A stretch of 64,000 bases of DNA from an uncultured archaeon (lineage in GTDB: Archaea; Asgardarchaeota; Heimdallarchaeia; Heimdallarchaeales; Heimdallarchaeaceae): positions 1,612-65,611 of the forward strand of contig CAZHRF010000013.1 of assembly GCA_964534625.1 (NCBI GenBank), written 5' to 3'. The position numbers and the translations under genes were made by a program. Positions 28,835-55,198 of the stretch are shown here, in pieces; position 1 is the first letter of the stretch; each line of letters opens with the position of its first letter. The notes beneath the pieces were generated by a model. The model was not told where the DNA came from. It made no database searches and was given only the letters and a program-made list of their open reading frames with translations.

Positions 28835-28846
28835 AAGGAGAAAAAA

Positions 28847-33778: not shown

Positions 33779-33965
33779 TCAATGTAGGATCTGTTTGGAT
33801 ACAATTCTCAATTTTGAATATATATGTGGCATAAAATCAATTCTCATAGAACCATATACTAATTGTTGATTTTTTCCAGTACTTCATCAAGTTCCTTAAC
33901 CTTATCAAGAAGATTGGTTAATGCAATTGCATCATTTTCAGCTTCAGGTAGTTTACCTTCTCTTG

Positions 33966-35929: not shown

Positions 35930-35962
35930 ATTAACAAGGTCTTCATCTGTAAAGTCGAATAT

Positions 35963-37660
35963 TTAGGTAAATATCTCCCTAACATTGCATGTTTTGTTAT
36001 AATGATTACAATATGCATCTATAATTTTCTTAATTAGGGCGATTAAAATATAATTCCAATATCTTACAGAATCTTTGTATTCAACAAATATGGATCTTGC
36101 TCTTTTATATTCATCAATCGTTCTATATTCTGAATTTTCATTGCGTATCGCTTCTTTTATATCATAATCTTTTTTTGTATAAAAGGATTTTACGACTTCT
36201 GCTATGCTTTTAATAGCTTTGGCAAATAGTATTGATTCAATCCATGAAATAGTGTTTCCTCTTATTTCCACATTCATCTTATTTATGTCAAATGCATCTT
36301 CATATAGTTCATCTTTATCAAATATGTCTTTGGTGTATGATCTTGCAATATTTTGTTTTCCTTGAAAAGCCATACTTAATTGTCCAAATTCCTTCATAGT
36401 CAGAATACGATAATTTTTTGGCAGACCTTTAAATTTTTCCACAGATCCAGACCTTGACTTTGTAGAATCCCAACCTCCTCTTTTATGTTCATAAAATATT
36501 GATATCGAATGATCCCCAAGCATGTTTTTAATTGGAAGATGTATGTACTCATCAGCCGATCTCATATCTAGTTTGTTAATAGGGTTTTGTGTGTTTGTAG
36601 CTTGGGCAATTTTCTGTTTCTGTTTTTCATCTTCTATAGGGATGATTTTTGCCCAAACGTTTATTCCCTCTTGTTTAATATCATTTAAAGCCATTTTGTT
36701 TTCTCTCATAAAATCTCTTACAGCATCGTGAATTGCCCAACAAGTTTGACATCCATTAACTATTTGTGGTTTTACTAATATAAATTCGCCATTAAATACT
36801 TCTTGCTCTTCAATAATAACTAGGTCACAAATGATGTTCAATCCATTGTTCAGTGTTTCTAGTTCGTAATTAATGTCACCATTAGCTTTATCTAATAATT
36901 CTTTAACTTCATCTTTAATCATTTTTCCAATTTTCGACCCTCTACTAGGTGGTAATCTGAATCTTAAATTTTTGAGAAATAGTGCATCATTATGGGACTT
37001 AAGTAAATCATATATTTGAGTGACATTAATTGGACTTAATACCAGTTTTATTTCCTCTTCATTGTTTTTTCTAAGTATCAGCGCCTCTTTTTCCGATTTT
37101 ATCTTAATCTCATCTGGTGGTTGTAAAAAATATGATTCTTGATACCTTATGATTTCTATTATATCCTCTTTATCGTAAATTTCGACATCATTTTGTTTTG
37201 CATTTAATATTGCATCATCATTTAATCTTCCAGTAACACATACGACTTTACGAATAAGTTTTAGGTCTTTTAACCTTTTATAATCGCCCCTTAAATCTCT
37301 AAAATCATTGTTGAGAACATCTTCATCACTCTCTAGCATTCTTATTCCATTTAGGAGTTGATCTATAGGTTCATTGTCAAATGTTGTGTCTGACGAGAGA
37401 TCAGAGTATTTGCATTGTACTAGTAAAATTGTGTCTTTTTCATCATCGATTACTCCAATATCTATTCCATGATCACCTGTTTGACCAAAAAAAATCCTTT
37501 CATTAGGGTCAATGCCAAATATGTTTTTTGTGGCCCATTTTTCAAAAATAAATCCTTTTTTCTCATTTGATAGGATTTCTTCATTGGGATAATACTCTTT
37601 ACCTAAATTATTAATAGATTCTTCAAAATCTTGTATTATTTGTTCATTAAAATTACTCAT
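35963..37660 (-). CDS. AIPR-family abortive-infection protein with N-terminal PD-(D/E)XK (Mrr-like) nuclease domain
   Basis: The N-terminus has GDHGIDIGVIDDEKDTILLVQCKY (D...QxK nuclease core). The central PQIVNGCQT is the AIPR hallmark. Confidence 0.7.
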   Translation of the reverse strand: MSNFNEQIIQDFEESINNLGKEYYPNEEILSNEKKGFIFEKWATKNIFGIDPNERIFFGQTGDHGIDIGVIDDEKDTILLVQCKYSDLSSDTTFDNEPIDQLLNGIRMLESDEDVLNNDFRDLRGDYKRLKDLKLIRKVVCVTGRLNDDAILNAKQNDVEIYDKEDIIEIIRYQESYFLQPPDEIKIKSEKEALILRKNNEEEIKLVLSPINVTQIYDLLKSHNDALFLKNLRFRLPPSRGSKIGKMIKDEVKELLDKANGDINYELETLNNGLNIICDLVIIEEQEVFNGEFILVKPQIVNGCQTCWAIHDAVRDFMRENKMALNDIKQEGINVWAKIIPIEDEKQKQKIAQATNTQNPINKLDMRSADEYIHLPIKNMLGDHSISIFYEHKRGGWDSTKSRSGSVEKFKGLPKNYRILTMKEFGQLSMAFQGKQNIARSYTKDIFDKDELYEDAFDINKMNVEIRGNTISWIESILFAKAIKSIAEVVKSFYTKKDYDIKEAIRNENSEYRTIDEYKRARSIFVEYKDSVRYWNYILIALIKKIIDAYCNHYNKTCNVREIFT

Positions 37661-37865: not shown

Positions 37866-38780
37866 TTAATTTTTCTTGTTTTCTTTTCTAAATATCAAGC
37901 AATACTGGTGATGTCTATTACCAACCCAAGCATTGTAAATTCCTAAAGGTAGTAAACTTTTATCATCTTGGCACCAGATTTTCTCATCTTTAAGTACCCA
38001 TTTACATTTATCAGTTCTAGATAGTGAGATTGCTGTATCATAAGCTAGGGGATAGACTTCACCATTATAAAAAACATTATTAGTTATAACAACCAAGTAT
38101 CCTTTATTTTTCATAACTTTCCATACTTGATCAAATATTTTCTTTTGTTCTTCTATAAACTCAAGATAATCATCAATATTTCCAATGTCATCCTCATTAT
38201 CTTCTGAGTAAATTGTATCAAGATTCTTCTCTTTTCTTTCTTTTTGTCTGATGTGGTTTCTTTTTAGTTGATTCCAATAAGGTGGACTGGTAATACAGAA
38301 ATCAACTTCTTCGATACCTTCTTTCTCAAGTAATGATACTAAATTCCGGGAATCTCCTGTGATTATTTTGTGTTCTGAAGTCATAATTTTTTCTTCAGAT
38401 ACTGAAACTTTATTCAAAATTTGTGATAATTCAGGTTGATCTTTTAGTCTTTCTTTAGCAATTTTGGAGTATTTTTTGTTAATCTCTATACCTACCCCAT
38501 TACGAATTAATTCTCTGCAAGCTACTAATGTGCTACCTGTGCCTAGAAAAGGATCTATTACCCACTCTCCTTTTTTAGTAAAAAAAGCTATAAATTCACT
38601 TACAAGGGATTCGGGATAACTAGCGGGATGCATTACCTTTTTATCCCCTCTCGATTTTGGTCTGTGAATAAACCATGATTTTGTAAATTTAATCCATTCC
38701 TTGCCTGAAAGTTCGTTTAATCGGTTTTCTGGTTTTTTTCTTTTGTTTTTTGTCAAGTAAATCAAGCCTTTTTCTGTCAA
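37866..38780 (-). CDS. SAM-dependent DNA methyltransferase (N6A/N4C type)
   Basis: Motif I is VIDPFLGTGSTLVA and catalytic motif IV is CITSPPYWN. The size is typical of a type II methyltransferase. Confidence 0.8.
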   Translation of the reverse strand: MTEKGLIYLTKNKRKKPENRLNELSGKEWIKFTKSWFIHRPKSRGDKKVMHPASYPESLVSEFIAFFTKKGEWVIDPFLGTGSTLVACRELIRNGVGIEINKKYSKIAKERLKDQPELSQILNKVSVSEEKIMTSEHKIITGDSRNLVSLLEKEGIEEVDFCITSPPYWNQLKRNHIRQKERKEKNLDTIYSEDNEDDIGNIDDYLEFIEEQKKIFDQVWKVMKNKGYLVVITNNVFYNGEVYPLAYDTAISLSRTDKCKWVLKDEKIWCQDDKSLLPLGIYNAWVGNRHHQYCLIFRKENKKN

Positions 38781-38998
38781 ATGAAATAGTGTTATTTTAT
38801 GGGTTTAAAGAACCTTTTATTACAGATATTTCAGTACTATTATATTTTTTATCATATACTATCTTCAACGAAAGTATTTGAAGACAACAATTTTGTTAAA
38901 AATAACTTTAAGAATTATAGTAATACCTAATTATTTTTAAAAGAAAAATAAGCGGATAGGGTGATTTTAGGAGTATACTAAAACTATAAAATAGACTT

Positions 38999-40024
38999 TT
39001 AGTCTTGTGGTGGCCAAGGATCATATGGTTTTATAAGGGCAATTTTTCTTATAGTAACCCTCTTGATAATACCTAGATCATCCATTAAACCTATGTAATT
39101 TGATATTCTCTGATGATTGTTCAAGAAACGTATACCTAAGAAGTTGCTTTCGTCAAATCCTTCTTCTATATATACTTCTTTGATTTTTTCTACTATGTCC
39201 TTGTTGGAAATAACTTGATCATCACAAGGATTGAGATTCTTATCTAAGCAATGTTTGAAAATTGCTCTCCAGATAATTTCTATAGGTTTTTTGAATATTT
39301 CATAGATAGTTTTCTTCATTCCCCACATATTTTGTTCATGTTTTAAAGCTAGGATTCTTTTAGAGAGATTTGTAAGTCTATTTTCAAAATCGATGAAACC
39401 ATATTGATATAAAGTTAAAAGAAAATTAACTCTTATGTGTTTTTCATTAAATTTAGTTCCATCATCCTTAAGCACCCCATTTTGAATACGTTCCGTTATA
39501 TAATGTGTTTCTAGTTCTTCTTCAGATTTTTCAAACTCTTCTTCCTTAATTACTTCTAAAATCTCTAATAATCTATCAATAGAGTTAATACCTTCATTAA
39601 AGAACACCCCTTGAACCATTATTTCTTTTTCTTCTTCTAAATTTTTAAGTTCCTTTTTTGCATCTTCTAGCGTTAATTCTCCGCCTTTCTTGTCTAGATA
39701 GAATATGTCTATTTCATCTGGTAAAGCTAACTTTGTTAAAGATACTAAACTATCTTGTGGTATTAAAAACACTACCTTTCCCTTTTTCAATTTGTCATTC
39801 TTATTTCTAAGGTGTTGATATTGATAACATTGTCCGATACCCCGAACAATATCAGTAAGACCAACTGAACCTTTGCACTCAATAAGAAAATCTGCTTGAT
39901 CATTTTTAAAGGCAACAACATCAATTATTGGACCTTGATATATGACAGGATATTCTTCATGAATATCATAGCCTTTTTTCTTATAATATTTTATGGCGGC
40001 ATTTTTTACGGTTTTTTCAATCAT
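38999..40024 (-). CDS. PD-(D/E)XK nuclease-like N-terminal domain fused to a helical/wHTH-like C-terminal region (candidate restriction or reader component)
   Basis: GPIIDVVAFKNDQADFLIECKG provides the D...ExK core. The gene lies between the DpdA-like genes and the methyltransferase on the same strand. Confidence 0.45.
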   Translation of the reverse strand: MIEKTVKNAAIKYYKKKGYDIHEEYPVIYQGPIIDVVAFKNDQADFLIECKGSVGLTDIVRGIGQCYQYQHLRNKNDKLKKGKVVFLIPQDSLVSLTKLALPDEIDIFYLDKKGGELTLEDAKKELKNLEEEKEIMVQGVFFNEGINSIDRLLEILEVIKEEEFEKSEEELETHYITERIQNGVLKDDGTKFNEKHIRVNFLLTLYQYGFIDFENRLTNLSKRILALKHEQNMWGMKKTIYEIFKKPIEIIWRAIFKHCLDKNLNPCDDQVISNKDIVEKIKEVYIEEGFDESNFLGIRFLNNHQRISNYIGLMDDLGIIKRVTIRKIALIKPYDPWPPQD

Positions 40025-40077
40025 AAGAAGAATGGTGTGAAAATTTATTAAAATATTATGGCAATAAAATATACCAT

Positions 40078-41256
40078 TTATAAATATTGTAATATTTTAC
40101 TCTGTCTAAACTTCCTTTTTCGTTGTCCATATTTAAATAAAGAAAAGTATTGACTGTTCTTTAGATTTATTTCCAAGAATTCTGCATACTGTTTATTGGC
40201 TATTTTATTTAATGCCCGATGATTTTCTTTCATGAATACATAAGCATTATGTATTGCTCTTAACTTAAAGCTGTCATTTATTTTTTTTAAAGAATTATTT
40301 TCATGAATGCCACAATTACATTTCTTGAATTGTTCTATTTCCAATTTTGATAATTTTGGTCTATTTTTTCTTGCAGGACTAGGTAGAATAAATCTGTCTC
40401 CAGTCTTTGGCAACTGTATTGCACCAAATGCTGCTTTTAATCTCCAGCCCATGGAATCAATTGAATCGACTCCCAAGGCAAACATCAGATGCATCGTTGA
40501 GGAGCTTCCAATTCCAAAAACATGGAGAAATTTATCAGGAAATCTTTTTCGAACATATTTGATTGAATCTATGATAAATTGTTGAGTAGTATATTCATTG
40601 GATATTGCAAAACCGCTTTCAATTCCTATTTTTTTCGTTTTTTTTGCTGATCTTATTAGAGGTACTAAACTTCCTATACCTATAACAGGTGTGTCATAAC
40701 AAGCTAAACAATCACAAAAATGTTTTATTTCTTCCTTTGTATAACCATGGATAATGGGCATTATATTATTAAATTCTTGACTCATTAATCCCCAATTGTC
40801 CAATGATTTTTTGATATTAAACTTTCTTTGAGTTTTATTTTGATTCGGACCTAATGGTAAATCTAAACTAGCTAGTAAATCTGGTGAGGTTTTCTTATAG
40901 ATTTCTACAACTTCTTCCAAATTGATTTCAAAGTCTTGATTTTTCTGGATCAAATACCCACCAGAATCCATAAATACAATTCCATCAAAATTTAAAAAAG
41001 CATGAATATTTGAATCAAAGATTTTTTGTTTATGCTTTATTGATTTAATTATTTCATAAGCATTAATCATTAAACCTTGGATGTTTTTTTCTTTACCTTG
41101 TTCTCTAAAATAAACCCAAGGTTCAGGTTTTCCATTAAGTATTGTACCATGGAACATGATGGGAGTTTTTACTATTTTTGATCCAATTTTGAGTTTGCCT
41201 GTTCTAGCTTCTGTTTTTTTATCCTCATTATTTACAGTAAAACTAATTTTTGTCAA
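40078..41256 (-). CDS. TGT-family transglycosylase without PUA/tRNA-binding domains (DpdA-like), paralog 1; TTG start
   Basis: Collinear with the ArcTGT catalytic core: GKLKIGSKIVKTPIMF, GIVFMDSGGYLI, IIHGYT, GIGSLVPL, LHVFGIGSSSTMHLMFALGVDSIDS, and zinc site CNCGIH...IHNAY. Confidence 0.75.
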   Translation of the reverse strand: MTKISFTVNNEDKKTEARTGKLKIGSKIVKTPIMFHGTILNGKPEPWVYFREQGKEKNIQGLMINAYEIIKSIKHKQKIFDSNIHAFLNFDGIVFMDSGGYLIQKNQDFEINLEEVVEIYKKTSPDLLASLDLPLGPNQNKTQRKFNIKKSLDNWGLMSQEFNNIMPIIHGYTKEEIKHFCDCLACYDTPVIGIGSLVPLIRSAKKTKKIGIESGFAISNEYTTQQFIIDSIKYVRKRFPDKFLHVFGIGSSSTMHLMFALGVDSIDSMGWRLKAAFGAIQLPKTGDRFILPSPARKNRPKLSKLEIEQFKKCNCGIHENNSLKKINDSFKLRAIHNAYVFMKENHRALNKIANKQYAEFLEINLKNSQYFSLFKYGQRKRKFRQSKILQYL

Positions 41257-41322
41257 TATTCTTTCCTAGCTACATAAAAGATATTAATAAAGCAAAAAGA
41301 AAAAATGTGCAAAAATAGTTTG

Positions 41323-42492
41323 TTAGACATAGCTTATAAGTTTAGTCTGTTTTTGAGATTGATTTAGACTATATTTAAAGAGTTTTTTGTAAATAGTTCG
41401 TTCCAATCTTTTATTAACAAAACTTTTGTAGTTTTCGTTAGTAATTGCTTCTATTGCTTTGATGTTTTCCTGTAGAAATATATATGCATTATGTATTGCC
41501 TTAGGTTCAAAAGTTACATCAATATAATCATAATCATATTCTTGATGAATGCCACAATTACAATCATTGAACCTTCTTTTTTGTTCATTAGAGAATATGG
41601 GCCTATTACCTCTTTTCCCATCTAAGTCGGAAAGAAACCTGTCAGCTGTAAAAGGGAGCTGTACTGCGCCATAAGCTGCTTTTAATCTCCAGCCCATGGA
41701 ATCGATGGAATCTACTCCCAAAGCAAACATCAAATGCATTGTTGAAGCACTCCCAATACCAAAAACGTGAAGCATCCGTTCAGGAAATCTCTTCCTTACA
41801 TAATTAATAGAATCAACGACAAAATGTTTACTTTTATACCACTTCTCATCTGAAAATCCACTATTCTTACCAATATGTTTTGTACCATTGGTTGATCTCA
41901 TTAGAGGAACAAGACTTCCTATCCCTATAACAGGACATTCATAAGATTCTAAGATGTCACAAGCATTTTTTAATTGTTTTTTAGTATAGCCATGAACGAC
42001 AGGAACTATGTTTGGAAAAATTTCGTGCATTTCTTCATAATTTTTCATGGTATTTTTCCAATTTTTTTGGTTCTCTTGATAACTTTTTTCAGGAGAAAAT
42101 GGATGATCCAAGGAAACAAAAAGATCTGGATCTGACTTTCTATAAACCTCTAAAACATCTTCGACTTCAATCTCAAAATCTTGTTTTTTTTGGATTAAAT
42201 ATCCACCTGAGTCCATAAATACAATTCCATCAAAATTTAGAAAATCATGTATATTGTTTTCAAAAATAGTTTTTTTATGCTTAACAGATTTGATTATTTC
42301 ATATGCATTTAACATTAAACCGCGTATATTTTGCTTTTTACCGTGTTTTTTGAAATATATCCATGGTTCGGGTTTTCCATTAAGTATTGTGCCATGGAAC
42401 ATGATTGGGGTTTGAATTCTTTTATTACCAATTTTTAAAGTTCCCTTTCTAGCAGCAGTATCGTCGCATTCTTTATCAATCTTGAAAGACAT
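41323..42492 (-). CDS. TGT-family transglycosylase without PUA/tRNA-binding domains (DpdA-like), paralog 2
   Basis: Has the same motif set as paralog 1 (GTLKIGNKRIQTPIMF, FMDSGGYLI, VVHGYT, LHVFGIGSASTMHLMFALGVDSIDS, CNCGIH...IHNAY). Confidence 0.75.
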   Translation of the reverse strand: MSFKIDKECDDTAARKGTLKIGNKRIQTPIMFHGTILNGKPEPWIYFKKHGKKQNIRGLMLNAYEIIKSVKHKKTIFENNIHDFLNFDGIVFMDSGGYLIQKKQDFEIEVEDVLEVYRKSDPDLFVSLDHPFSPEKSYQENQKNWKNTMKNYEEMHEIFPNIVPVVHGYTKKQLKNACDILESYECPVIGIGSLVPLMRSTNGTKHIGKNSGFSDEKWYKSKHFVVDSINYVRKRFPERMLHVFGIGSASTMHLMFALGVDSIDSMGWRLKAAYGAVQLPFTADRFLSDLDGKRGNRPIFSNEQKRRFNDCNCGIHQEYDYDYIDVTFEPKAIHNAYIFLQENIKAIEAITNENYKSFVNKRLERTIYKKLFKYSLNQSQKQTKLISYV

Positions 42493-42578
42493 TGAATATC
42501 TTTTCCTCTTTTCAAGAGAATATAATTTATCCCATATATAAGGATAACATTTATTTTGTTAAAAATTATTAAAAAATC
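42493..42578. promoter_or_regulatory. Divergent promoter spacer between the DpdA-like and PLD genes
   Basis: 86-bp AT-rich spacer. TATA-like tataatttat (42521-42530) and catatataagg (42533-42543) each lie about 30-40 nt from the respective start codon. A small palindrome ctctt-ttc-aagag sits at 42506-42518. Confidence 0.35.
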
Positions 42579-43925
42579 ATGCATCCAATCATTTTGTTTA
42601 ATAACATACATAATGAATATAACTTAAATGAGAAAACTAAAGATTTGAAAGATACTTTATCAAGGAAAATTAAGGAAGGAGCGAAGGAGGATGGAAGTGA
42701 GTTACTTTTTGGAGTTGCATATATTAAAAATTCAGGCATAAATCCCTATCTAAACAATTTTGAACAAATATTAAGTCAGAATGGAAGAATCAAAATATTA
42801 ACTTGTTTTGATTTTGGATTAACCGATCCACTTGCATTGAAAAAACTTATCCAATTGAAAAAATTTGGGGATATCGAAGTTCATTTCTATCAAAATACAA
42901 AAGGTAATTATCATCCTAAATTTTACTTATTTAATACAAATAATAAAAGAGGGGGTATAATAGGTTCAAATAATTTTACATATTCTGCTCTCAATGATAA
43001 TATAGAATTAGCTGTTTTAATTAATGACCAAGAAAGTATTAAAAATTTGGAGAGTTATTTTTATTCACTATGGCAAAAATCAGTTAATATCAATGCTGAA
43101 ATTATTGATGAGTATTCAACAAAATATAACAAGCTACAAATAGAACGAGAAAAAACAGAGAAAGAAATGAAACAATTAGCTGAAAGTTTTGAAGAAAGAG
43201 TAATAAGTGACCCCATAGATGAAGAAGAAATAGAAACCATAATATCACAAATCAAAGCTTATTTTAATATTCCCTCTGGCTTGCTTTTTTGGAGAGATGT
43301 GGCTCCTGATGAAGTAGGTACATTATTGTATTATTCTTCAAAAGAAGAAGATTTTGATGCAAGAGAATTTGTAATAGATTTGATAAGAAATGACTGTCTT
43401 CATTATAAAAGTGAGTCATCAATTGGAGCATGGTTAAATTATCGCTTATTTATGGAAACCATAGGTTATTGGGATGATTATGGACTAACAAAATGGGGAA
43501 AAATTGCTCTTGATGAATATAGAAAATCAGGACAAGGTTTTTTAGCATTTTTGCAATTCAGCATATTAGTTTCGGGTGAAATTTACAGATTAATTAGTGT
43601 ATTAAATCAAGCAAACAGTGAAATTAAGCACATAATTAATTCTGAAAGTAGATTATTAAAGGGTGAATGGATTGATCTTGTTTATCCAATAATATGTGAA
43701 AAACTGGCAAAATATGGTGCGGATTATGAATTGGGAGAGGAAAGTTTCAAACGATATCTTCCAAGTCTATTTAATAAATTTGGACTGGGGTCATATATCT
43801 ATACAATAATACCAACTGTCTACGAAATCAAAATACATGAAATCTCTCACCAAATTCTCAATTATGGTCAGAAATTCAAATTGAAATCATCGGAAACGCA
43901 AAATGATTTTATTGGCGATCTCTGA
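42579..43925 (+). CDS. PLD-superfamily (single HKD-like motif) nuclease-like protein with a large uncharacterised C-terminal domain
   Basis: NYHPKFYLFNTNNKRGGIIGSNNFTYSAL is an HxK...GSxN motif. The C-terminal ~280 aa are unassigned. Confidence 0.65.
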   Translation: MHPIILFNNIHNEYNLNEKTKDLKDTLSRKIKEGAKEDGSELLFGVAYIKNSGINPYLNNFEQILSQNGRIKILTCFDFGLTDPLALKKLIQLKKFGDIEVHFYQNTKGNYHPKFYLFNTNNKRGGIIGSNNFTYSALNDNIELAVLINDQESIKNLESYFYSLWQKSVNINAEIIDEYSTKYNKLQIEREKTEKEMKQLAESFEERVISDPIDEEEIETIISQIKAYFNIPSGLLFWRDVAPDEVGTLLYYSSKEEDFDAREFVIDLIRNDCLHYKSESSIGAWLNYRLFMETIGYWDDYGLTKWGKIALDEYRKSGQGFLAFLQFSILVSGEIYRLISVLNQANSEIKHIINSESRLLKGEWIDLVYPIICEKLAKYGADYELGEESFKRYLPSLFNKFGLGSYIYTIIPTVYEIKIHEISHQILNYGQKFKLKSSETQNDFIGDL

Positions 43926-44552
43926 GTCACTCAAGTCCTCAATAATGTCATTAATATCGGATAAAGTAATATTCTGACCTTTTTGTGTCTTTGTATAATA
44001 TAAATTTACAAATCTTGATATTGCATCAGAATCGCTGATATTTTCAATATCTATTTGATTATTTTGCATCTGCTCAATGTGTTCATCAAACTGATTTTGA
44101 TATGTTTCTGCATCCAAATTTCTGCTTATTCTAGAATTTGTTAATTTCTTAATTTCCTTGTAAATTCCTTTTAAATTTTTAGCTTTTTTGGTTTTTTCTT
44201 TATCTATTTTGATTTGAATTAAGAAATCTAAGAAAGCTATTTTGTCATCTATAGCTTTAATTATCTCAAACTTAAATGAATTCATTAATCCTTCGGCGTT
44301 TTTAAAGAGATCTTCTACATTTGTAATAAGATCGTCATGTTCTATTTTTTGATGGGATTTCAATGACTCATAATTTTCATATAAATTCTTGAGACTTGTT
44401 TTTTTCCCTATTGCAATTAAAAATTTGGAGTAACATAGACATTTCACTAAAGATTCGTTTAAATCTTGAAATTTTTCTTCTATCTCTCTGGTTTTCTCTC
44501 TATTTAATGACTTTTCAAGTGCTTTAACTAATGACATCATGTATCTCTCCAA
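43887..44552 (-). CDS. Hypothetical helical protein, last gene of the helicase operon
   Basis: Overlaps the upstream gene by 29 nt. Its 3' end overlaps the convergent PLD gene by 39 nt. Confidence 0.4.
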   Translation of the reverse strand: MERYMMSLVKALEKSLNREKTREIEEKFQDLNESLVKCLCYSKFLIAIGKKTSLKNLYENYESLKSHQKIEHDDLITNVEDLFKNAEGLMNSFKFEIIKAIDDKIAFLDFLIQIKIDKEKTKKAKNLKGIYKEIKKLTNSRISRNLDAETYQNQFDEHIEQMQNNQIDIENISDSDAISRFVNLYYTKTQKGQNITLSDINDIIEDLSDSEIANKIILRFR

Positions 44553-47481: not shown

Positions 47482-48454
47482 TTTTATCGCCTCGATTTAT
47501 TATCTCAATCCAGTTAACTTTATCGCCAAATTTTGCTTTGATGAATGTAGGTTTCGGTGATACAATAGGGAAATCACCTCTGTTTAACAAATTAATATGA
47601 TCTCTCGAATATAGTAGCCAAAGGGCACTACCCATTGATTTTGTGATAAATGCTTGATATTTATCATCTTGTTGTGTTATTGGAAGAAATTTCTTAGCTA
47701 TTGTATCAATTAAGTTCTTTAGGGGCATTCCTTTGGTTTCTGTTTTGGAATATTTTGAAATTAATGGTCTTAATAAGTACATTATATAGTAAGGATTGAG
47801 TTTTGAAAAGTAATATTTATCCCTTCCATGTTTTACTTCCTCACATAACTCCAGATCTTTTAATATTTCTAATGCATTCCTTAGTTTGTTGTCATTCATT
47901 TCTATTAGTTTCCCTCGACTAGACTCAGGCTTATAACCAATATTATTAAAATATGTGTTAACATCATTAACTGTTTTTTGACTTCTTTTTAAGCCATACT
48001 TTGTATCTTGACTAATTTCCATAAAACTGTAAACTAAAAGAATTGCAGCTTGTTTGTAAAATACATATTTGGAAGTCGGTTCCATTTTAAAAGATATATT
48101 GGCTAAATTTTTAATAATTTCAAAATTTAGTTTATAATCAATATAGCGTTGTAAAGTATCTGTATCCAGTTTTCCCCTTTTTTTTTCTATGATTGTATAA
48201 ATGTCGGAAACTGTTTTTAAAAGATCTTTAGCTAAGCATATTTTGTCATGTTTTTTTTCTGTCATACCCAGTACTCTTAAAAATTCGAGTTTTTCATCAA
48301 TATTTCTTTCTTTATTAGAATGAAACTTTTCTAGAATGCTAGTATGCTCAAAACCGTTTGATTCTCTTCCAAGGAGCATAATAACTTTCCTTATTCCGCT
48401 TACATTGTTTACTTGGTTTAAGAGATATGGTTGATCAAATTCTTCCATGGACAT
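47474..48454 (-). CDS. Hypothetical protein (possible wHTH repeats), helicase operon
   Basis: 326-aa ORF with overlapping ends on both sides. No family recognised. Confidence 0.45.
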   Translation of the reverse strand: MSMEEFDQPYLLNQVNNVSGIRKVIMLLGRESNGFEHTSILEKFHSNKERNIDEKLEFLRVLGMTEKKHDKICLAKDLLKTVSDIYTIIEKKRGKLDTDTLQRYIDYKLNFEIIKNLANISFKMEPTSKYVFYKQAAILLVYSFMEISQDTKYGLKRSQKTVNDVNTYFNNIGYKPESSRGKLIEMNDNKLRNALEILKDLELCEEVKHGRDKYYFSKLNPYYIMYLLRPLISKYSKTETKGMPLKNLIDTIAKKFLPITQQDDKYQAFITKSMGSALWLLYSRDHINLLNRGDFPIVSPKPTFIKAKFGDKVNWIEIINRGDKNE

Positions 48455-49353
48455 ATTAAATTCTTCCTTATTTTTTCTGGTAAAACATTAAAAATTCTCA
48501 CTATTTCATCTACTATGGATTTCTTATTTGGATGTTTATATTCCCAATATATACTTTCGAAATCATTATCTTGATACTTTCTGAGAATTAAATTTGTTAT
48601 TTCTTTATTCTCTTCATTATTTAACTCAAATTGATATTTGAAATTTCTAGCTATTGCAGTTATGATATTTCCCTTGTTTTTTACTTTTTCTCTATCTAAA
48701 CTATTAATATATTCCATAATATTGTAGAAAATTGGATTCATTTCCTCTTTAATAGCATATATTATCAATTCTTTAACTGTATCGAACTTTTTATTGTCAA
48801 TTTCATTAAAAATATATGCCAGATTATTCAAGAATAAATTTTGTGTTTGAGTGAAATCTAATTTCCAGTTGTAATTTTCTTTAAGCGTTTTAACTATTCT
48901 CTGATACATTTCAGTGTAATAAGTAAAGTAATTTTCATGAAATAACTCTGTTTCTTTCACTGGTCGTACAAATCCCGATAAGGTTTTTTTACACGCATCT
49001 TGTTCATTCAGAACAAATAGGTAATCATGTTTTGCTGATATTAAGATTTTATGTATTGCATAATCAAAAGAATAATCGCCATATCTTGATTTTGAAATCA
49101 TACAATATTTCTGTTCTGATCCTTTATTTTCTTCCAGAATTTGATCAATATGAACAAATTCGTGTGGAATTGGAGTGAACTGTTTGTATTTCTTAGAAAT
49201 TTTTCTCCATCCTATAGGATAGGTGAAATCTTTAACTCCGAGTAGTTGTAAGATGGGTATTGATCTTAGAAGAGATCCAATGTTTTCTTCAATTATTAGA
49301 ATATATTTATTTGACTTAATCTTGTTTGTGTAATAATCAATGAAATCAGTCAT
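48418..49353 (-). CDS. Hypothetical protein, helicase operon
   Basis: 311-aa ORF that overlaps the helicase gene by 8 nt. No family recognised. Confidence 0.45.
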   Translation of the reverse strand: MTDFIDYYTNKIKSNKYILIIEENIGSLLRSIPILQLLGVKDFTYPIGWRKISKKYKQFTPIPHEFVHIDQILEENKGSEQKYCMISKSRYGDYSFDYAIHKILISAKHDYLFVLNEQDACKKTLSGFVRPVKETELFHENYFTYYTEMYQRIVKTLKENYNWKLDFTQTQNLFLNNLAYIFNEIDNKKFDTVKELIIYAIKEEMNPIFYNIMEYINSLDREKVKNKGNIITAIARNFKYQFELNNEENKEITNLILRKYQDNDFESIYWEYKHPNKKSIVDEIVRIFNVLPEKIRKNLICPWKNLINHIS

Positions 49354-52300
49354 AATATGTTTTCTCCAATACTCTTTTGACTACTTTACGATCTAACAAG
49401 TCATTTTTTATTATAGAAACAGGTGTTCTCTCTATTAAGACACACCTTTTGCAAAACTTATCACAATTATCACAATTAACAACAGAATTAACATTAGCTA
49501 GAATTTCATCAATATTCTTATTAACAGAATCCGCTATCCCATTCCCACCTTCACAATTGTCAACTATAGAGAGTCTGATAGATTTCTTTGTGTGTGTGGA
49601 AACAATAGTAAAATCATTGAGATCACAACCAAGGATAACTGAGATTGATTTCTTTAAAGCTTGTTCAAATGTAGATTCAAATATAGCTAATTTTCTTTTA
49701 TCTGTTGCATCTCTCTCTTCTTTTGGCTTATTGATGATTTCATTTATTGGAAAATCGAAAGTAAACGATTTGGTATATACATTGGTTCCTACTGGAACAT
49801 ATGTTCTTTTTAGTTGTTTGGTTCCACCTTCAAGAGCTTCTAACAAATTATCTAAATCTTCTTCTGGTTCAAGTTCTTCTTCTAATGTTTCAGAGGCTAT
49901 ATCTTCATGTATTTCGGCTTGGGAAGGTGAATCTGTCCAATCACTAGAAGCTCTGAATCTATAAGAAAACGATGGTACAAATGTAACCAGATTAGCAGTG
50001 GAAACAAATTTTGAAGAACTTATGTTGTTGCCAATCTTTAGCTCCTCTTTTTGAGGTTTCTCATAACTAATGTCTTCTATTATGAAAGGTGAAGATTTGT
50101 AGCCGAGATTCGATGGTAATCTTTTAATTTCAATACTTTCAGGTGCGTAAACATTTAATTCTGTGAGTTCATTATCACATAGTACACACTTATCAAGATG
50201 TTTTTCAGCTTTCAATTGATAAAAGTCACATTCTTTATTATCGCATATTTTTGTTTGAAGAATCTTTTTAGATGCGTATACTTTATTTGTAATATATGGA
50301 GTCATAGAAATGAGTTGAGAACCACCACTATACCGTCTCCCCGTTTTTTCGTAATTGTTATTCATATAACCAGGATAATTTTCTTTAATAGCATCCAGTA
50401 TTGATTTTTCATCAAATATCTCATTTTTCATTTTTATTGGTATATTTTGTACAAATCCTCTATAATTGGCTAAATAGCCTATTTTATTTAATATATTACT
50501 GAAAAACCTATAGTCTTCTGCTAATTTGTTTTGAGAGCTTTTAGAAAGTCCTCTCATCTTTGCATAATAAGAGAAGAAATTGTTTGTTCGTTTTAGAATT
50601 GAATAATCATTGTTTTTGTCAAGTATTCTTAGAAGAAGATTTTTAGCTGTATCTCCAAAACATTCAGAAATAGTTTGCTCGATTTCCTTCATCTTTTTAT
50701 CTTCGATTAATTTAGTGAATGCTTTGACCCTGATTTGGTTTTGACTTATAAATTTCCTCAGAGAAACATTGGCAAAAGGAGTATCCCATATTTTTTTGTA
50801 GATGTCTTTAAGATCATAATTTCTTGCTAAGTAGGTAGCTATTAAGGTAATTATATGGGAAGCATAAACTACCTCTACATCCTCTTTTTCTGGGATTCCA
50901 ATTTTTGGTATAGAGTCAAAATATCTTTCTTCTAATCTATCAAAATAATAATCATCGATGGCATTACCAGCCTTAATAAATGTTACAATAATTGATGATT
51001 TTCCTCCACTTCTTCCTGCTCTACCAGCTCTTTGAATATAATTTGCAATACCTGGTGGAAGTCCCACTAAAAAGATTGTATCTAAGTCCCCAATATCAAT
51101 TCCCAGCTCAAATGTAGTTGTTGCGGATATGGCGTTCACATCAGGTTTTGTACTTTTGAAATTATCTTCTATTACACTTCTAAGTTCCAAAGGTATACCC
51201 GCTCTGTGCACATTAATAGCCAAAGTATTTTCAGCCTCTGTGGTGGCATTGATTTGCTTCGCCCAATAGTCATTAACAACATTTGCTGGTGTTTTCTGGC
51301 CTAAAAATCCCCCATTTTTGGATCGATTTCCAGAAATGAATTCACCTTTACACAAAGGACAAATCTTGGTTAAAAAATTTATGGCGGGAAAAGCTTTCTT
51401 GCAAACTTCACAAAGATTAACTTTAGAAACTTTCTTCAAGGTGAAATCGTGTTTTTTTGCCTTAATTTTTCCCTCTCCTTTGTATCTCGTTGTAATTATA
51501 CCATAACAATCCTTAGGGATTTGAAATTCTATGGGGTCAAACAATTCTTGTAAACTTTTAGTTTGAATCTCAAAATAATCCTTTAGTGGGGCTCTGTCTT
51601 TTTCATGGGCATTAGACTCTATATTTGTGTTTATAATAGTCCTCTTGATAAAGGTTATAACATTATTTTCATAAAGGTATTTGATTACATATGGGAGTTC
51701 TTTATCAAGTATGTGACGCTTAATTTTTAGATTAAATTCTCTTATTTTTTCTAAAGTAAAGCCATCAAATTTGACTTTATGTCTGCTGAATTTACCCCCT
51801 TTTAATAACCTTTTCAGTATAGTATGACCAATTATAGCTTGGATATCATTTTCACTTTCTGTTAAAATACATTCTGCTGTGATTAGACTGCCATCAAACA
51901 ATATGGTAGCCGAATTTAAATTTGGAAGATGTTTTAACTCCGACTCTCTAAATTCTTTCCATTGCTTTCTACTAGCATAATCTCTTAAGGAATCCAAAAT
52001 TGGTTTATAGTATTTTTTATCAACAAATTGGATTGCTTTACCCCATAGATCATATGATAATAAAGGTTCTTCTAGGAGCTCAACCATTTTCCTTTGTGTT
52101 GAAATTTGATAGTCATTAGAAACAAAATCATGTCCAATTCTTTCAGCTAAATTTCTACTGTCTGCGAATATTAAAACTTTCTTTGAAGGAACTTTTCTTC
52201 CATAGACGGACAAGAATTGACTTAATAACTGGGGATGATATATTGTACCATCCTTTGTTTGATAAAATCTATTTAGACCACTTCCACATCGAGGACAATC

Positions 52301-54091
52301 TTTACTTACGGGTTCATCAGTTTTGAAATCATATCTAAGAGATGTATCTGTTTCCTCTTCTAGAAAGAAGTGTGAAGTGTAGAAAATATTATGACAAGTT
52401 GAACAAAAAACCAATTGTTTATCTATGTTATTGTTACATTTTGGGCAAATTTTCTTACTTGTTATACTTTTACAATTATCACAATAATATATTCCATCAT
52501 TTCCTCTTATGAAATAATGAAGCCTGTCTTGCAGTAAGCCTGCAATGCGTCCTATTGTTAATAAGGACAATAAAAGAGTTGTTTTATCTTCAAGAGAGAA
52601 AGAAGAAGGAAAACCAATTTGTTTATCAAATTGTTTTATTAGATCATCTAACAGTGTAAATTTGATTGGTTTTTCATCATAAGAAGATAAAATATCCCTT
52701 AAGTTAATTATTACTGGAATATTCATCTCAACATTTTTTCTAAAAAGATTTTTTAACCAAGGTGAACTCATAAACTCTTCATACGAAAGATCTGGAGCAT
52801 TTTTGTTTATATTAAGGATAATTTTTTGTTTATCGGTGTTAAAATTGCATAAGGAAAGAATTTCTAATAGTGAAAATTTATTCTTGTTCTTCTGAATGAA
52901 ATTAACATCTGTAATTCTTTCTTTCTTTTCTGTTACTAATTTATGATAAAATTTCAAAGCTTCTTCAGGTTTAATTATTGGAAATCTATCGATATTGACT
53001 TCTTTTGAACCTCTATATTCGATTTTTTCTGGTTCAAAGCTAATTGAGATGTTTTTTCTTTGAGTAATTTTCTCTCCAAATGAAGCAGGTTCTTTTAAAG
53101 TTGCAGATACGATAAAAGTTTTCATATCTCGACCAAAAAAATACCTTAATCTTTGACAAAGTAAACTTATTGCTGTACCTGAAGCTCCTGTCCAGTAATG
53201 AGCTTCATCAAAAACAACATATTTTACATTATCATTCAACATTTCTTTGCCTATAATCTTCTTTTTGTATTCTATAGGATCTATAGTTAGATAGTCAAAA
53301 GCTTCAGGATTTGTTAGAAGTATATTAACTCCAGTAGTTATGGCTTTTCTAGTTGCTTTAATCCAGAGAGAAACAAAATCACATTCAGAGCAGTATATTT
53401 GTTCCCCGAAAGAAATTCTTAGTTTGGATCCACATTCGGGACATTTAATACCTCTAATTATACTATCCGCTTTAATAGTATTTCTATCTTCATTGGACCC
53501 TACTTTATATTTTGTGTCCCCATCCCATATACCTATAGTGATGGGGTTTTGAGGGAGTTCGTTGTTTATTTCGTTAACGTAACGTATGATTCTGTTAAAC
53601 TGATCTACTGCTAATGTTTTAGTTGGATAAAAAATAAGGGACTTCAAATCTTTATTGTCTGCTTTAACACATTCATCCAAAATAGGTAACAAAAAAGCTT
53701 CTGTTTTACCTGAGGCAGTAGGTACAGATAAAGTGAAATCGCAATTATTATTCTTGAAAACCTCTTCAACAAATCCACTCTGGTGTTTATATAGACGTCT
53801 GTTTCTTATTCCTTTAAATAATGTTCGTTCATATGCTTTTTTAACTGAAGTATGAATATCCTGTTTTTCGCAAAAAATATCAAAATCATCTTTACACAAG
53901 GCGGATTTTGCAACATATTCTATATATGGACCTTTAATCTCAAAAAGCTCTTCTTTTAGAAAATCCCTTGCATTTGTTATATCTTCTCCACCTAATCTGG
54001 ATAAGGCTCGGTTCCAAATAAAAATCTCCCTAAGTTCATCCAATGAATTGTTGAATACTTCTATTGTTGAATAATTTCCCATTTTAGTCAA
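49346..54091 (-). CDS. Giant SF2 DEAD/DEAH-box helicase with multiple inserted zinc ribbons and a C-terminal DUF1998/MZB-type domain (DruE/DrmAB/MrfA-like)
   Basis: Motif I VPTASGKTEAF, motif II VVFDEAHYW, motifs V-VI ATTTFELGIDIGDLD...QRAGRAGRSG. CxxC ribbons include CPECGSKL...CSECDF, CDNCKS...CPKCNN, CPRCGS and CEVC...CPLCKG. The C-terminus reads VDNCEGGNGIADS...CDNCDKFCKRC. Confidence 0.8.
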   Translation of the reverse strand: MTKMGNYSTIEVFNNSLDELREIFIWNRALSRLGGEDITNARDFLKEELFEIKGPYIEYVAKSALCKDDFDIFCEKQDIHTSVKKAYERTLFKGIRNRRLYKHQSGFVEEVFKNNNCDFTLSVPTASGKTEAFLLPILDECVKADNKDLKSLIFYPTKTLAVDQFNRIIRYVNEINNELPQNPITIGIWDGDTKYKVGSNEDRNTIKADSIIRGIKCPECGSKLRISFGEQIYCSECDFVSLWIKATRKAITTGVNILLTNPEAFDYLTIDPIEYKKKIIGKEMLNDNVKYVVFDEAHYWTGASGTAISLLCQRLRYFFGRDMKTFIVSATLKEPASFGEKITQRKNISISFEPEKIEYRGSKEVNIDRFPIIKPEEALKFYHKLVTEKKERITDVNFIQKNKNKFSLLEILSLCNFNTDKQKIILNINKNAPDLSYEEFMSSPWLKNLFRKNVEMNIPVIINLRDILSSYDEKPIKFTLLDDLIKQFDKQIGFPSSFSLEDKTTLLLSLLTIGRIAGLLQDRLHYFIRGNDGIYYCDNCKSITSKKICPKCNNNIDKQLVFCSTCHNIFYTSHFFLEEETDTSLRYDFKTDEPVSKDCPRCGSGLNRFYQTKDGTIYHPQLLSQFLSVYGRKVPSKKVLIFADSRNLAERIGHDFVSNDYQISTQRKMVELLEEPLLSYDLWGKAIQFVDKKYYKPILDSLRDYASRKQWKEFRESELKHLPNLNSATILFDGSLITAECILTESENDIQAIIGHTILKRLLKGGKFSRHKVKFDGFTLEKIREFNLKIKRHILDKELPYVIKYLYENNVITFIKRTIINTNIESNAHEKDRAPLKDYFEIQTKSLQELFDPIEFQIPKDCYGIITTRYKGEGKIKAKKHDFTLKKVSKVNLCEVCKKAFPAINFLTKICPLCKGEFISGNRSKNGGFLGQKTPANVVNDYWAKQINATTEAENTLAINVHRAGIPLELRSVIEDNFKSTKPDVNAISATTTFELGIDIGDLDTIFLVGLPPGIANYIQRAGRAGRSGGKSSIIVTFIKAGNAIDDYYFDRLEERYFDSIPKIGIPEKEDVEVVYASHIITLIATYLARNYDLKDIYKKIWDTPFANVSLRKFISQNQIRVKAFTKLIEDKKMKEIEQTISECFGDTAKNLLLRILDKNNDYSILKRTNNFFSYYAKMRGLSKSSQNKLAEDYRFFSNILNKIGYLANYRGFVQNIPIKMKNEIFDEKSILDAIKENYPGYMNNNYEKTGRRYSGGSQLISMTPYITNKVYASKKILQTKICDNKECDFYQLKAEKHLDKCVLCDNELTELNVYAPESIEIKRLPSNLGYKSSPFIIEDISYEKPQKEELKIGNNISSSKFVSTANLVTFVPSFSYRFRASSDWTDSPSQAEIHEDIASETLEEELEPEEDLDNLLEALEGGTKQLKRTYVPVGTNVYTKSFTFDFPINEIINKPKEERDATDKRKLAIFESTFEQALKKSISVILGCDLNDFTIVSTHTKKSIRLSIVDNCEGGNGIADSVNKNIDEILANVNSVVNCDNCDKFCKRCVLIERTPVSIIKNDLLDRKVVKRVLEKTYYD

Positions 54092-54578: not shown

Positions 54579-55193
54579 TTAAATGAAAACCTCTTTACCT
54601 GTTTTTTCTTTTCTAAGTGTATAGAACTTATCCTTGAGTGTTTGATTTTTCGTTGGATTTTTAATGCATTTCTGTTCTTCTTCCAAGTCCTCTTTTACTT
54701 TTGATAAAATATTTTTGATTTGGAACCCTTTATCCTTGAGATCTTTGAAAATTTCTTCCATCAACATGATATTTTCCCATTCGTCTTTTTCTAAGTTATC
54801 CATGGTGGCTTTGGGTGGTGGAACTAATAAAACGAGCCGTGCATTAAATTTATCAGCTAACTTAAATTCTTTTTTTTCATCTTCAATATATTGTCTAATA
54901 ATTTTTTCAAATTTGTTTTTTTTATTCCATAGAGCTATTAATGCATCATTGAACGAATGTTTTTTTAGACCATAATCCTGTGTTTTAACTTCATAGACTG
55001 CCACTACTTTGTCATCCCTTACAACACCAAAATCCAAATAATTTCCTCCTTGTTTGAGATGTTTTTGGGGAACAACTTCTTCTATTATAAAATAACCTTT
55101 CTCCTTTGGATATTTTTGTTCTAACCAATATTCAACTATTCTTTCTCCTAAATAACCTCTAATTCCTATACTTCTTCTAACCATATTATTCAC
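54579..55193 (-). CDS. PD-(D/E)XK-like nuclease, hypothetical
   Basis: GYLGERIVEYWL followed by YLDFGVVRDDKVVAVYEVKTQ (D...EVK core). The gene starts 5 nt after the upstream ORF. Confidence 0.45.
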   Translation of the reverse strand: MNNMVRRSIGIRGYLGERIVEYWLEQKYPKEKGYFIIEEVVPQKHLKQGGNYLDFGVVRDDKVVAVYEVKTQDYGLKKHSFNDALIALWNKKNKFEKIIRQYIEDEKKEFKLADKFNARLVLLVPPPKATMDNLEKDEWENIMLMEEIFKDLKDKGFQIKNILSKVKEDLEEEQKCIKNPTKNQTLKDKFYTLRKEKTGKEVFI

Positions 55194-55198
55194 CTATT

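Follow-up and report, generated by a model that had tools for sequence, protein, structure and literature searches.

What is encoded where transglycosylase, methyltransferase, nuclease and helicase genes lie side by side in an archaeal genome, one defense system or several, and could it act through a 7-deazaguanine mark on DNA? The question is raised by a 64,000-nt stretch from an uncultured archaeon of the Heimdallarchaeaceae (contig CAZHRF010000013.1, assembly GCA_964534625.1; hereafter, the window), which carries at positions 37866–54091 two adjacent genes of the tRNA-guanine transglycosylase (TGT) superfamily, designated TGT_A and TGT_B, together with genes for a DNA methyltransferase, a phospholipase D (PLD)-type nuclease and a giant helicase. 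An original prediction, made from the sequence without database searches, regarded the whole as a single undescribed supercluster mixing themes of the Dpd, DISARM and Druantia systems. All eleven open reading frames (ORFs) that it named were found at their coordinates, and their domain types agreed with Pfam, PADLOC and NCBIfam. The single supercluster, however, splits into two defense units in our reading, to which we assign a probability of roughly 60%: Unit 1 (40078–54091) would be a modification-dependent restriction system resembling Dpd and BRIGADE, and Unit 2 (37866–40024) a separable type II restriction-modification (R-M) pair.

The bacterial Dpd system consists of dpdA–K (Thiaville 2016; Yuan 2018; Gedara 2023, PMC10164549). 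BRIGADE denotes computationally predicted, Dpd-like systems that are centered on a YprA helicase and reported only from halophilic archaea (Bell et al. 2025 preprint, PMC12458937); they share with Dpd the proteins DpdG and DpdHI/BrxC, the YprA helicase, PLD or PD-(D/E)xK nucleases and a large part of the deazaguanine cluster (PMC12458937). No complete known system was called for the locus by PADLOC, Pfam or NCBIfam, and the domain models matched there were those of a DruE-like helicase, a type II methyltransferase, a DrmC-like PLD protein and, weakly, DpdA.

The linkage between the helicase and the TGTs carries the reading of Unit 1. As predicted, the 1581-aa helicase heads an operon of five overlapping genes that converges on the PLD gene. 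It possesses DEAD, Helicase_C and MZB/DUF1998 domains, the last at residues 1475–1551, close to the C-terminal end, along with GKT, DEAH and QRAGRAGR motifs and eleven CxxC motifs, and it has no fused nuclease. Full-length relatives are very rare in a collection of 5.8 billion proteins: a handful from Heimdallarchaeia (50–55% identity), one from Promethearchaeota (32%), two others from metagenomes, and haloarchaeal proteins (26–28%). These last, encoded on megaplasmids, align over 99% of the length; outside the Asgard clade, no nearer full-length relatives were found. A TGT gene was present in all eight of the other inspected loci that have a full-length helicase relative, and the conservation of the neighborhood, which the original prediction had proposed to check, is thereby borne out.

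The eight loci differ in arrangement. The locus of Candidatus Heimdallarchaeum endolithica (L003) has a TGT, a methyltransferase, a nuclease of a family designated C11 and the helicase operon. A Heimdallarchaeaceae locus (L055) has the gene order of the window, with the PLD gene between the operon and the TGT gene, and a metagenome contig (L059) is like it, with a YaaA-like gene after the TGT gene. In Promethearchaeota (L052), TGT and DUF6884 genes are divergent from a 295-281-986-230-helicase operon, the reverse of the window order, and a second metagenome contig (L053) carries helicase-PLD-290-287-938-232 and a TGT–DUF6884 fusion. The Poribacteria locus (L027) has a TGT, C11, a methyltransferase, DUF6884, the helicase, a PLD gene and a homolog of f311, the gene next to the helicase in the window. 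One haloarchaeal locus (L054) combines YhhQ, QueC, FolE, QueE and QueD with a TGT–DUF5591 fusion, the helicase, f311 and f326, while a Natronosalvus plasmid (L057) has QueD/E/C, helicase-310-[227, opposite strand]-287-970-230, two TGTs and a DUF6884-like gene. QueC, QueD and QueE genes are therefore found beside the same operon in both haloarchaeal loci, with FolE and YhhQ added in L054. The helicase-first order, which had been taken as a distinguishing feature of the window, is common to the haloarchaeal loci and reversed in L052.

This co-occurrence in Asgard, haloarchaeal and bacterial genomes, despite rearranged order, largely refutes the notion that the stretch is a chance mosaic within a defense island and that the helicase operon is a separate Druantia-type system. 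The notion draws on the best PADLOC match of the helicase, which is DruE1 (2e-54, compared with 9e-24 for DpdJ and 5.6e-20 at best for the DrmA models), on the density of the island, with its AIPR, TumE/PIN, SLFN–STAND and SMODS genes, and on the pairing of the TGT family with quite different modules, mainly HerA/NurA. The helicase does share with Druantia type I its giant YprA/DUF1998 architecture with many zinc-binding CxxC modules. However, none of the other locus proteins matched DruA–D at E ≤ 0.01, the partner proteins resemble DpdG, DpdH and DpdI and not Druantia proteins, and the window locus differs from Druantia type I in its TGT and PLD partners and in a helicase without a fused nuclease. 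We consider a chance mosaic highly improbable.

The other four operon genes accompany the helicase across genomes: f311, f326 and f985 do so by sequence in iterative searches, and the small last gene, f221, is kept in size and position. Homologs of f311 adjoin the helicase operon in L003, L055, L059, L052, L053, L054, L057 and L027, although f311 itself had no match in Pfam, PADLOC or the PDB, and none to Dpd proteins by hhalign. As a Dpd reference, we used the annotated cluster of Paenibacillus pART37 (dpdF-287-1078-217-dpdJ, the dpdJ product being 1490 aa), and compared alignments of the window families by hhalign with its single proteins at the DpdG, DpdH and DpdI positions. The f326 family, conserved in L003, L055, L052, L053, L054 and L057, matched the DpdG-position protein with an E-value of 7.7e-5 (probability 62%, 193 columns; cross-comparisons, E ≥ 0.06), and its homolog in L052 weakly matches the PADLOC DpdG model (E = 0.015); f326 is thus, with moderate support from sequence, DpdG-like. 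The f985 protein has a Walker A motif (GETGTGKS) at residue 78 and weak matches to STAND/AAA_22 and mad8. It resembles DpdH through a weak hhalign match to the DpdH-position protein (E = 2.6e-3, 359 columns; cross-comparisons, E ≥ 0.26), and its homologs in L052 and L053 match the PADLOC DpdH model, 1009 residues in length, at 6e-5 and 2e-3, respectively. For f221, the DpdI-position protein was the best of all comparisons, at a weak E-value of 0.029 (cross-comparisons, E ≥ 0.58); by sequence, f221 matched only a protein of L055, and proteins of the same size occupy its position in L059, L052, L053 and L057. Because the sequence match is weak, the possible identity of f221 as a DpdI-like protein rests mainly on size and order.

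The order and sizes of the putative G-H-I genes agree with those of the Paenibacillus pART37 cluster (287, 1078, 217 and 1490 aa, the last for dpdJ). Families of the f985 and f326 type are also present in the haloarchaeal loci L054 and L057. Thus, three of the four proteins that had been called unassignable have pair-specific matches, moderate to weak, to DpdG-, DpdH- and DpdI-like proteins in the same order. The view that the locus is undescribed holds in that neither PADLOC nor NCBIfam recognizes a canonical system, but the content and order of the helicase operon are those of haloarchaeal loci that fit BRIGADE, and the window operon appears to be their counterpart.

Both TGTs match PF01702 and no other Pfam family, over residues 13–365 (TGT_A) and 16–363 (TGT_B). 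They comprise the catalytic domain only: neither has a PUA domain or a C-terminal extension, as the original prediction had it, nor any of the tRNA-binding domains C1, C2 and PUA. The two proteins are 56% identical, and the genes are 76% identical along two stretches, of 300 and 207 nt, in a 1245-nt register; they are a tandem duplication. In a Bathyarchaeia locus (L023, 9977–12432), two adjacent and convergent TGT genes are far more divergent from each other, and paired TGTs are hence not peculiar to the window. TGT_A is 61–66% identical to the TGTs of L003, L055 and L059, each beside the same helicase operon, and TGT_B is basal to this Heimdall clade in a neighbor-joining tree, with no ortholog found elsewhere. 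TGT_B sits where the L059 relative carries a PF03883 (YaaA/DpdC-like) gene after its TGT gene. The second TGT could be a heterodimer partner or the source of a second specificity; as a heterodimer, the tandem pair might replace the missing DpdC-like partner or widen site or base specificity.

The position of the TGTs within the superfamily is given by model scores. Membership of the superfamily is supported by the NCBIfam tgt_general model (60–72 bits; cut-off 47.6). Against the NCBIfam model of the archaeal tRNA enzyme (arcTGT, TgtA), they score 98.6 and 103.6 bits (cut-off 350), and against the DpdA equivalog, only 21 and 31 bits (cut-off 200); the PADLOC DpdA model matched one of the two paralogs only, at 4e-7. 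With all three NCBIfam models, TGT_A has the higher score of the pair. A profile of the TGT family gave 137 bits with the arcTGT structure 1iq8, approximately 40 with bacterial TGT, 36.5 with DpdA (7ui4) and a weak 22.6 with Cap10. By sequence, therefore, the TGTs appear to be derived from arcTGT and to be far closer to it than to bacterial DpdA (bDpdA), so that of the two DpdA-like paralogs originally proposed, the number stands but the affinity does not. The family is nonetheless neither canonical arcTGT nor bDpdA, because its TgtA score is below the cut-off and C1, C2 and PUA are missing.

The catalytic residues are retained in both proteins. Family-invariant columns include D94 (DSGG), D129, D261 and D264 (GVDSxDS), C311, C313 and H334; D94 aligns with the general acid/base of arcTGT, and D261/D264 form the nucleophile region. 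The third zinc ligand is H316, with CxCxxH in the Heimdall clade in place of the CxCxxC of the remaining family and arcTGT, and this Cys-to-His change occurs in 8 of 40 aligned sequences.

To which chemistry the TGTs belong is indicated by the family at large. There were 272 relatives of TGT_A at E ≤ 1e-5; among the 120 listed, nearly all are stand-alone proteins of 340–425 aa, and the named hosts are mostly archaea with a few bacteria. Relatives in phage or virus genomes are confined to Sulfolobus viruses (STSV1/2, 29% identity, and SIRVs) and one Thermocrinis virus, and the family hardly occurs on viral contigs (1 match). When neighboring genes were clustered over 49 genome loci of the family, nearly all loci proved to be defense contexts. 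DUF5591, the catalytic core (C1) of ArcS, adjoins family members in many loci; where it converts dPreQ0 to dG+ in DNA, it goes by the name ArcS2 (PMC10516641). A DpdC-like YaaA/DUF6884 gene adjoins the TGT in L059, L052, L027, L016, L030 and L060; DUF6884 has a YaaA-like DNA-binding fold (PMC11701544), DpdC belongs to the YaaA family DUF328/PF03883 (PMC12839542), and several of the small YaaA-like neighbors also match PF03883. Three loci have the YhhQ/Vut_1 precursor transporter next to the TGT, and another three have QueC there. These DUF5591, YaaA/DUF6884, YhhQ and QueC neighbors tie the family to 7-deazaguanine chemistry on DNA.

A competing possibility is that the TGTs do not mark host DNA, and are instead split-arcTGT tRNA enzymes, base-excising or base-exchanging effectors acting on invader DNA, or enzymes of protein deazaguanylation. 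TGT-like Cap10 of type IV CBASS attaches deazaguanine to protein, and the weak Cap10 match points that way, as do the arcTGT structure being by far the best match and the lack of DpdB and DpdC in the window. However, the tRNA-binding domains are missing, the TgtA score is far below the cut-off, the family occurs in defense contexts almost throughout, the adjacent genes include neither a QueC-like Cap9 nor a CD-NTase, and the DpdC-like and ArcS-core partners of relatives suggest a DNA-bound deazaguanine. The original prediction had named as contrary to it TGTs that branch inside tRNA-modifying arcTGT with retained tRNA-binding features and that show no co-occurrence with the helicase operon; since the tRNA-binding domains are absent, this is not what was found. 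We regard non-marking TGTs as improbable.

The dominant context among the 49 loci is a TGT with NurA, HerA, a protein of ~1400 aa and a small DUF5591 or DUF6884 protein, found in both archaea and bacteria (L004–L011, L014, L015, L017, L019, L021 and L024), with the TGT at ~10001–11150 in most such loci. Our literature search found no description of a TGT combined with HerA/NurA; the BRC system also has HerA and a TGT, but with PglZ, DUF6079 and DUF4007 instead (PMC12839542). Judging by its neighbors, the family appears to serve as a modification module for which several restriction modules can be partners. A bolder reading, which we hold only tentatively, is that the arcTGT-derived TGTs constitute an unclassified subfamily of DNA-guanine transglycosylases apart from bDpdA and DpdA1–4, DpdB-free, marking cellular chromosomes and portable across restriction modules; the partners may then be the YprA–DpdG/H/I–PLD set or the far commoner set of NurA, HerA and the ~1400-aa protein. 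Two further contexts were noted. In Acidobacteriota and Alphaproteobacteria, the TGT occurs with a ~498-aa protein and a ~310-aa protein with a C-terminal DUF5591 (L026, L028, L033, L034, L037 and L049), and in Promethearchaeota (L030, 12108–18182), a TGT with DUF6884, methyltransferase and C11 genes lies beside BrxL- and PglZ-like (BREX-type) genes, not beside a YprA operon.

The probable effector of Unit 1 is the PLD protein, whose single-HKD gene is, as claimed, divergent from the TGT genes across exactly 86 bp; this spacer may act as a promoter region. The protein has one HxK...GSxN motif (HPK...GSNN) and matches PLDc_2 (3e-13) and NgoFVII (1e-11) over residues 54–174, and PADLOC DrmC models match its PLD domain only (down to 1.5e-9). 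Residues ~230–403 align with the C-terminal domain (CTD) of the C11 proteins. These are ~385 aa long, with an N-terminal PD-(D/E)xK motif (PDF...FEVKP) and a conserved CTD; they accompany a TGT and a methyltransferase in L003, L027, L030, L052 and L055, a profile search found at least four further members, and versions consisting of the CTD only occur in L016, L030 and L060. Because the PLD and C11 proteins carry the same CTD, the nuclease domain would have been swapped, PLD for PD-(D/E)xK. In L055 and L059, the gene for an ortholog of this PLD–CTD protein separates the helicase operon from the TGT gene. An AF2 model built on a four-sequence alignment was poor (pLDDT, or predicted local distance difference test, of 51) and unusable for a structure search. 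We predict that PLD–CTD is likely the DNA-cleaving effector in the role of DpdK; its CTD probably supplies DNA or sequence recognition, and may be a DNA-reading domain that the effector took over from a type II restriction enzyme.

The methyltransferase of Unit 2 is of the N6A/N4C type as predicted, with PF01555 (6.5e-29) and PADLOC MTase_II (7.6e-38) matches and motifs FxGxG at residue 78 and SPPY at residue 165. The adjacent 341-aa protein (unk341), originally described as PD-(D/E)XK/winged helix-turn-helix-like, had no Pfam or PADLOC hidden Markov model match, but that description is upheld by D35, E49 and K51, invariant together with GIGQ..Y in 22 relatives, and by an AF2 model (mean pLDDT 88) for which Foldseek gave significant matches only to the type IIS enzyme PaqCI (E = 1.4e-5 to 3.9e-4). 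The unk341 and C11 families matched by hhalign (E = 3.4e-5, probability 72%), a result significant only after the 22 relatives were added and insignificant in a single-sequence run; unk341 appears on this basis to be a distant C11 homolog. Profile searches of the f311 and unk341 families against PDB sequences gave nothing usable. Sequence and model together support unk341 as a PD-(D/E)xK restriction endonuclease, and its relatives adjoin N6_N4 or C5 methyltransferases in classic R-M operons.

Could the whole stretch nevertheless be one system, with the methyltransferase as main self-mark, as in DISARM, BREX and ARMADA, the TGT as second mark, and both nucleases, PLD–CTD and PD-(D/E)xK–CTD, reading the same sites by way of the domain they share? 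Copies of the methyltransferase, 51–75% identical, lie near the TGT in L003, L016, L027 and L030, and the same family occurs in L052, L055, L059 and L060. The methyltransferase family and a C11-type nuclease thus keep company with the TGT and helicase in the window, L003, L055, L059, L052 and L027 despite shuffled order, and the C11 domain in the PLD protein and the homology of unk341 to C11 point in the same direction. A reverse test argues otherwise: among 80 metagenome loci with the closest methyltransferase relatives (47–63% identity), none had a TGT, the helicase, DUF6884 or AIPR, and 19 had a nuclease adjacent to the methyltransferase (C11 in 13, unk341 family in 6) as plain pairs. Standalone methyltransferase–endonuclease pairs without TGT or helicase are also present in L062 and L064–66, the relatives of unk341 are found in textbook R-M operons, and in L053, L054 and L057 the helicase operon and TGT occur without the methyltransferase. 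One system is thus unlikely. Because the closest methyltransferase relatives lack TGT and helicase in the 80 loci, the methyltransferase and unk341 are predicted to form an autonomous, free-standing type II R-M pair, which appears to accompany the Dpd-like system repeatedly in Asgard archaea and Poribacteria and yet to be self-sufficient. The DISARM-like role once suggested for the methyltransferase is likewise unsupported, because the pair occurs widely without TGT or helicase. A deazaguanine-based self/non-self system remains the preferred account for the TGTs, the PLD protein and the helicase operon, with a TGT in eight of eight loci, but not for the methyltransferase pair.

Given the observed domain identities, retained catalytic residues, co-occurrence across genomes and link of the TGT family to 7-deazaguanine genes, we propose the following mechanism for the two units. 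The two stand-alone TGTs would exchange guanine in host DNA for a 7-deazaguanine base after replication, with no need for DpdB. The inserted base would most likely be preQ0 from the archaeosine pathway, which is found in nearly all archaea. The DpdJ-like helicase, the DpdG/H/I-like proteins and f311 may, by analogy, form an ATP-driven complex that senses and translocates on unmarked DNA, which the PLD–CTD nuclease would cleave. Unit 2 would operate as a conventional type II R-M system, with an m4C/m6A methyltransferase and a PD-(D/E)xK endonuclease.

Several points weigh against this reading. By tblastn, no QueC/D/E, FolE or YhhQ gene was found in the 64-kb window, and no DUF6884 or DUF5591 gene was found there either. 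The ten proteins of 37866–54091 include no DpdB/ParB match in Pfam, PADLOC or NCBIfam, nor a DpdC, as the original prediction had noted; DpdC-like genes are present in relatives. In bacterial Dpd, DpdB is the ParB-like ATPase on which preQ0 insertion depends, and DpdC turns dPreQ0 into dADG. The TGTs are closest to a tRNA enzyme, the DpdH and DpdI matches are weak and were obtained with single-sequence references, and the assignment of the haloarchaeal L054/L057-type loci to BRIGADE is by analogy of gene content. Moreover, most non-halophile relatives have the TGT together with the methyltransferase and C11 nuclease; because the R-M genes recur with the TGT and the PLD protein has the C11 domain, the division into two units may understate their functional coupling.

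Comparison with described systems places Unit 1 nearest to BRIGADE. The common features are a separate PLD or PD-(D/E)xK nuclease, DpdG- and DpdH/I-like partners, TGT genes and, apparently, a YprA helicase of the same branch without a fused nuclease, and haloarchaeal L057 has the operon order of the window, two TGTs and a DUF6884-like gene. The window locus differs in having one helicase where BRIGADE usually has two, in lacking a 7-deazaguanine biosynthesis cluster, in a TGT of the arcTGT-derived subfamily that is ~22% identical to the haloarchaeal TGT, in the fusion of its PLD to a restriction-enzyme domain, in the attached type II R-M pair, and in an Asgard-type host with relatives in Poribacteria, whereas BRIGADE is known from halophiles only. 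With bacterial Dpd it shares a TGT-superfamily enzyme and a PLD protein and, apparently, a DpdJ-type YprA helicase and DpdG/H/I-like proteins; in contrast, it has no DpdD, DpdE or DpdF, its TGTs fall below the DpdA-model cut-off and outside bDpdA, and its helicase is nearer to Druantia/ARMADA-type models than to DpdJ (80 bits with the NCBIfam DpdJ model; cut-off 800).

The remaining systems are more distant. DISARM shares the helicase/DUF1998 theme, a DrmC-matching PLD and a nearby methyltransferase, but in the window, helicase and DUF1998 are fused, DrmD and DrmE are absent, DrmA (5.6e-20) is far behind DruE (2e-54), and the methyltransferase, a small type II enzyme, belongs to an independent R-M pair. 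Viral systems of DpdA and ArcS2 (STSV2, Vibrio phage nt-1; PMC10516641) are related in that the DpdA of STSV1/2 is the nearest viral relative (29%) and the cellular TGT family is often paired with a stand-alone ArcS core (DUF5591); dCDG is present in the DNA of STSV2, which encodes DpdA and an ArcS core (PMC10516641). The viral enzymes, however, guard the viral genome, whereas the window TGTs lie in a cellular defense locus with a restriction module. From arcTGT itself, the TGTs are set apart by the missing C1, C2 and PUA domains and by scores under the equivalog cut-off. As for Unit 2, a small N6_N4 methyltransferase beside a predicted PaqCI-like PD-(D/E)xK endonuclease is the composition of a type II R-M system, from which it differs in that unk341 and the PLD effector of the neighboring system have their CTD in common. 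Our literature search found no description of Dpd-like systems in Asgard archaea.

The features of the locus and its surroundings are listed in Table 1. The five operon genes overlap successively by 8, 37, 8 and 29 nt, and the last of them shares 39 nt with the 3' end of the convergent PLD gene. The contig comes from a metagenome assembly and is 67.9 kb long, the GC content is ~30% across the whole window, and the nearest relatives of every locus gene are from Heimdallarchaeia (50–75% identity).

Table 1. Positions of the genes and other features discussed, numbered from the first nucleotide of the window.
Feature	Position	Strand	Basis
Mre11-like (Metallophos), Rad50-like (AAA_23/SMC_N/SbcC), then radical-SAM/Fer4_12 gene	24749–29419	+	
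PIN and TumE toxin genes	32800–34617	-	flanking defense genes
AIPR gene with one in-frame stop	35609–37660	-	PF10592, 6.8e-24
N6A/N4C DNA methyltransferase, 304 aa	37866–38780	-	PF01555, MTase_II, FxGxG then SPPY
Predicted PD-(D/E)xK restriction endonuclease (unk341), 341 aa, winged-helix-type C-terminal part	38999–40024	-	invariant triad, PaqCI-like predicted fold
TGT_B, tandem paralog of TGT_A, 392 aa	40078–41256	-	PF01702
TGT_A, stand-alone transglycosylase, 389 aa	41323–42492	-	PF01702
Divergent TGT_A/PLD intergenic spacer, 86 bp, AT-rich	42493–42578	.	sequence inspection
PLD (single HKD) nuclease with restriction-enzyme-type CTD	42579–43925	+	PLDc_2/NgoFVII
Small last operon gene (f221), 221 aa, DpdI position	43887–44552	-	mainly size and order
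DpdH-like P-loop ATPase (f985), 985 aa	44524–47481	-	Walker A, hhalign
DpdG-like protein (f326), 326 aa	47474–48454	-	hhalign, weak PADLOC match
Conserved helicase partner (f311), 311 aa	48418–49353	-	conserved neighborhood
YprA/DUF1998-family superfamily 2 (SF2) helicase, 1581 aa, DpdJ-like, heads operon	49346–54091	-	DEAD + Helicase_C + MZB
PLD fragment, 89 aa (PLDc_2, 7.6e-8), then 204-aa ORF in another frame	54579–55468	-	
SLFN/AlbA_2–STAND (NACHT-like)–TPR protein, 1368 aa	55675–59781	-	flanking defense gene
SMODS nucleotidyltransferase (CBASS-like)	62994–63827	-	flanking defense gene

The locus lies within a defense island that starts at ~32.8 kb, takes up the rest of the window and includes PIN, TumE, AIPR, SLFN/AlbA_2–STAND–TPR and SMODS genes and a PLD fragment, with host-type Mre11/Rad50-like genes upstream. 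The AIPR gene is split by a stop codon at 35963–35965 into ORFs of 565 and 106 aa in one frame. In L016 and L060, an intact AIPR of ~711 aa adjoins DUF6884, a CTD-only protein, a TGT and two methyltransferases, and AIPR is possibly an accessory of the R-M/TGT module. The PLD fragment and the ORF that follows it probably derive from a second PLD gene, located just upstream of the helicase and broken by a frameshift; the 89-aa fragment is 47% identical to part of one L014 protein. A QueE-like match at 28847–29419 proved spurious, the gene being a generic radical-SAM gene, and no tRNA gene was found in a search across the window. A UvrD-helicase and PDDEXK_1 nuclease pair is encoded near the system in L003 (6629–9834), L052 (18866–23500) and L059 (12929–16133), but not in the window; the L055 contig ends at the PDDEXK_1 gene (2–844), the only one of the two to be seen there.

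Chemical evidence for DNA marks of the 7-deazaguanine type is known only from bacteria that carry Dpd islands, from phages and from archaeal viruses; for cellular archaea, they have so far only been predicted, through BRIGADE in haloarchaea. The window locus and roughly ten relatives extend this prediction to the Asgard archaea, the prokaryotes most closely related to eukaryotes, and to Poribacteria, a bacterial phylum associated with sponges. As judged from its genes, the locus differs from every described member of Dpd and BRIGADE in its TGT lineage, its single helicase, its lack of biosynthesis genes and of DpdB and DpdC, its PLD–restriction domain fusion and its host. The transglycosylase lineage appears to have branched from the tRNA enzyme arcTGT and not from bacterial DpdA, and the locus yields a compact candidate, free of DpdB, for an enzyme of DNA base exchange. 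The locus further provides a clear case of a modification module that is re-paired with different restriction modules, and a probable instance of a PLD effector that has gained the recognition domain of a restriction enzyme. Our model predicts that dPreQ0, dADG or dG+ would be present in the DNA of Heimdallarchaeia.

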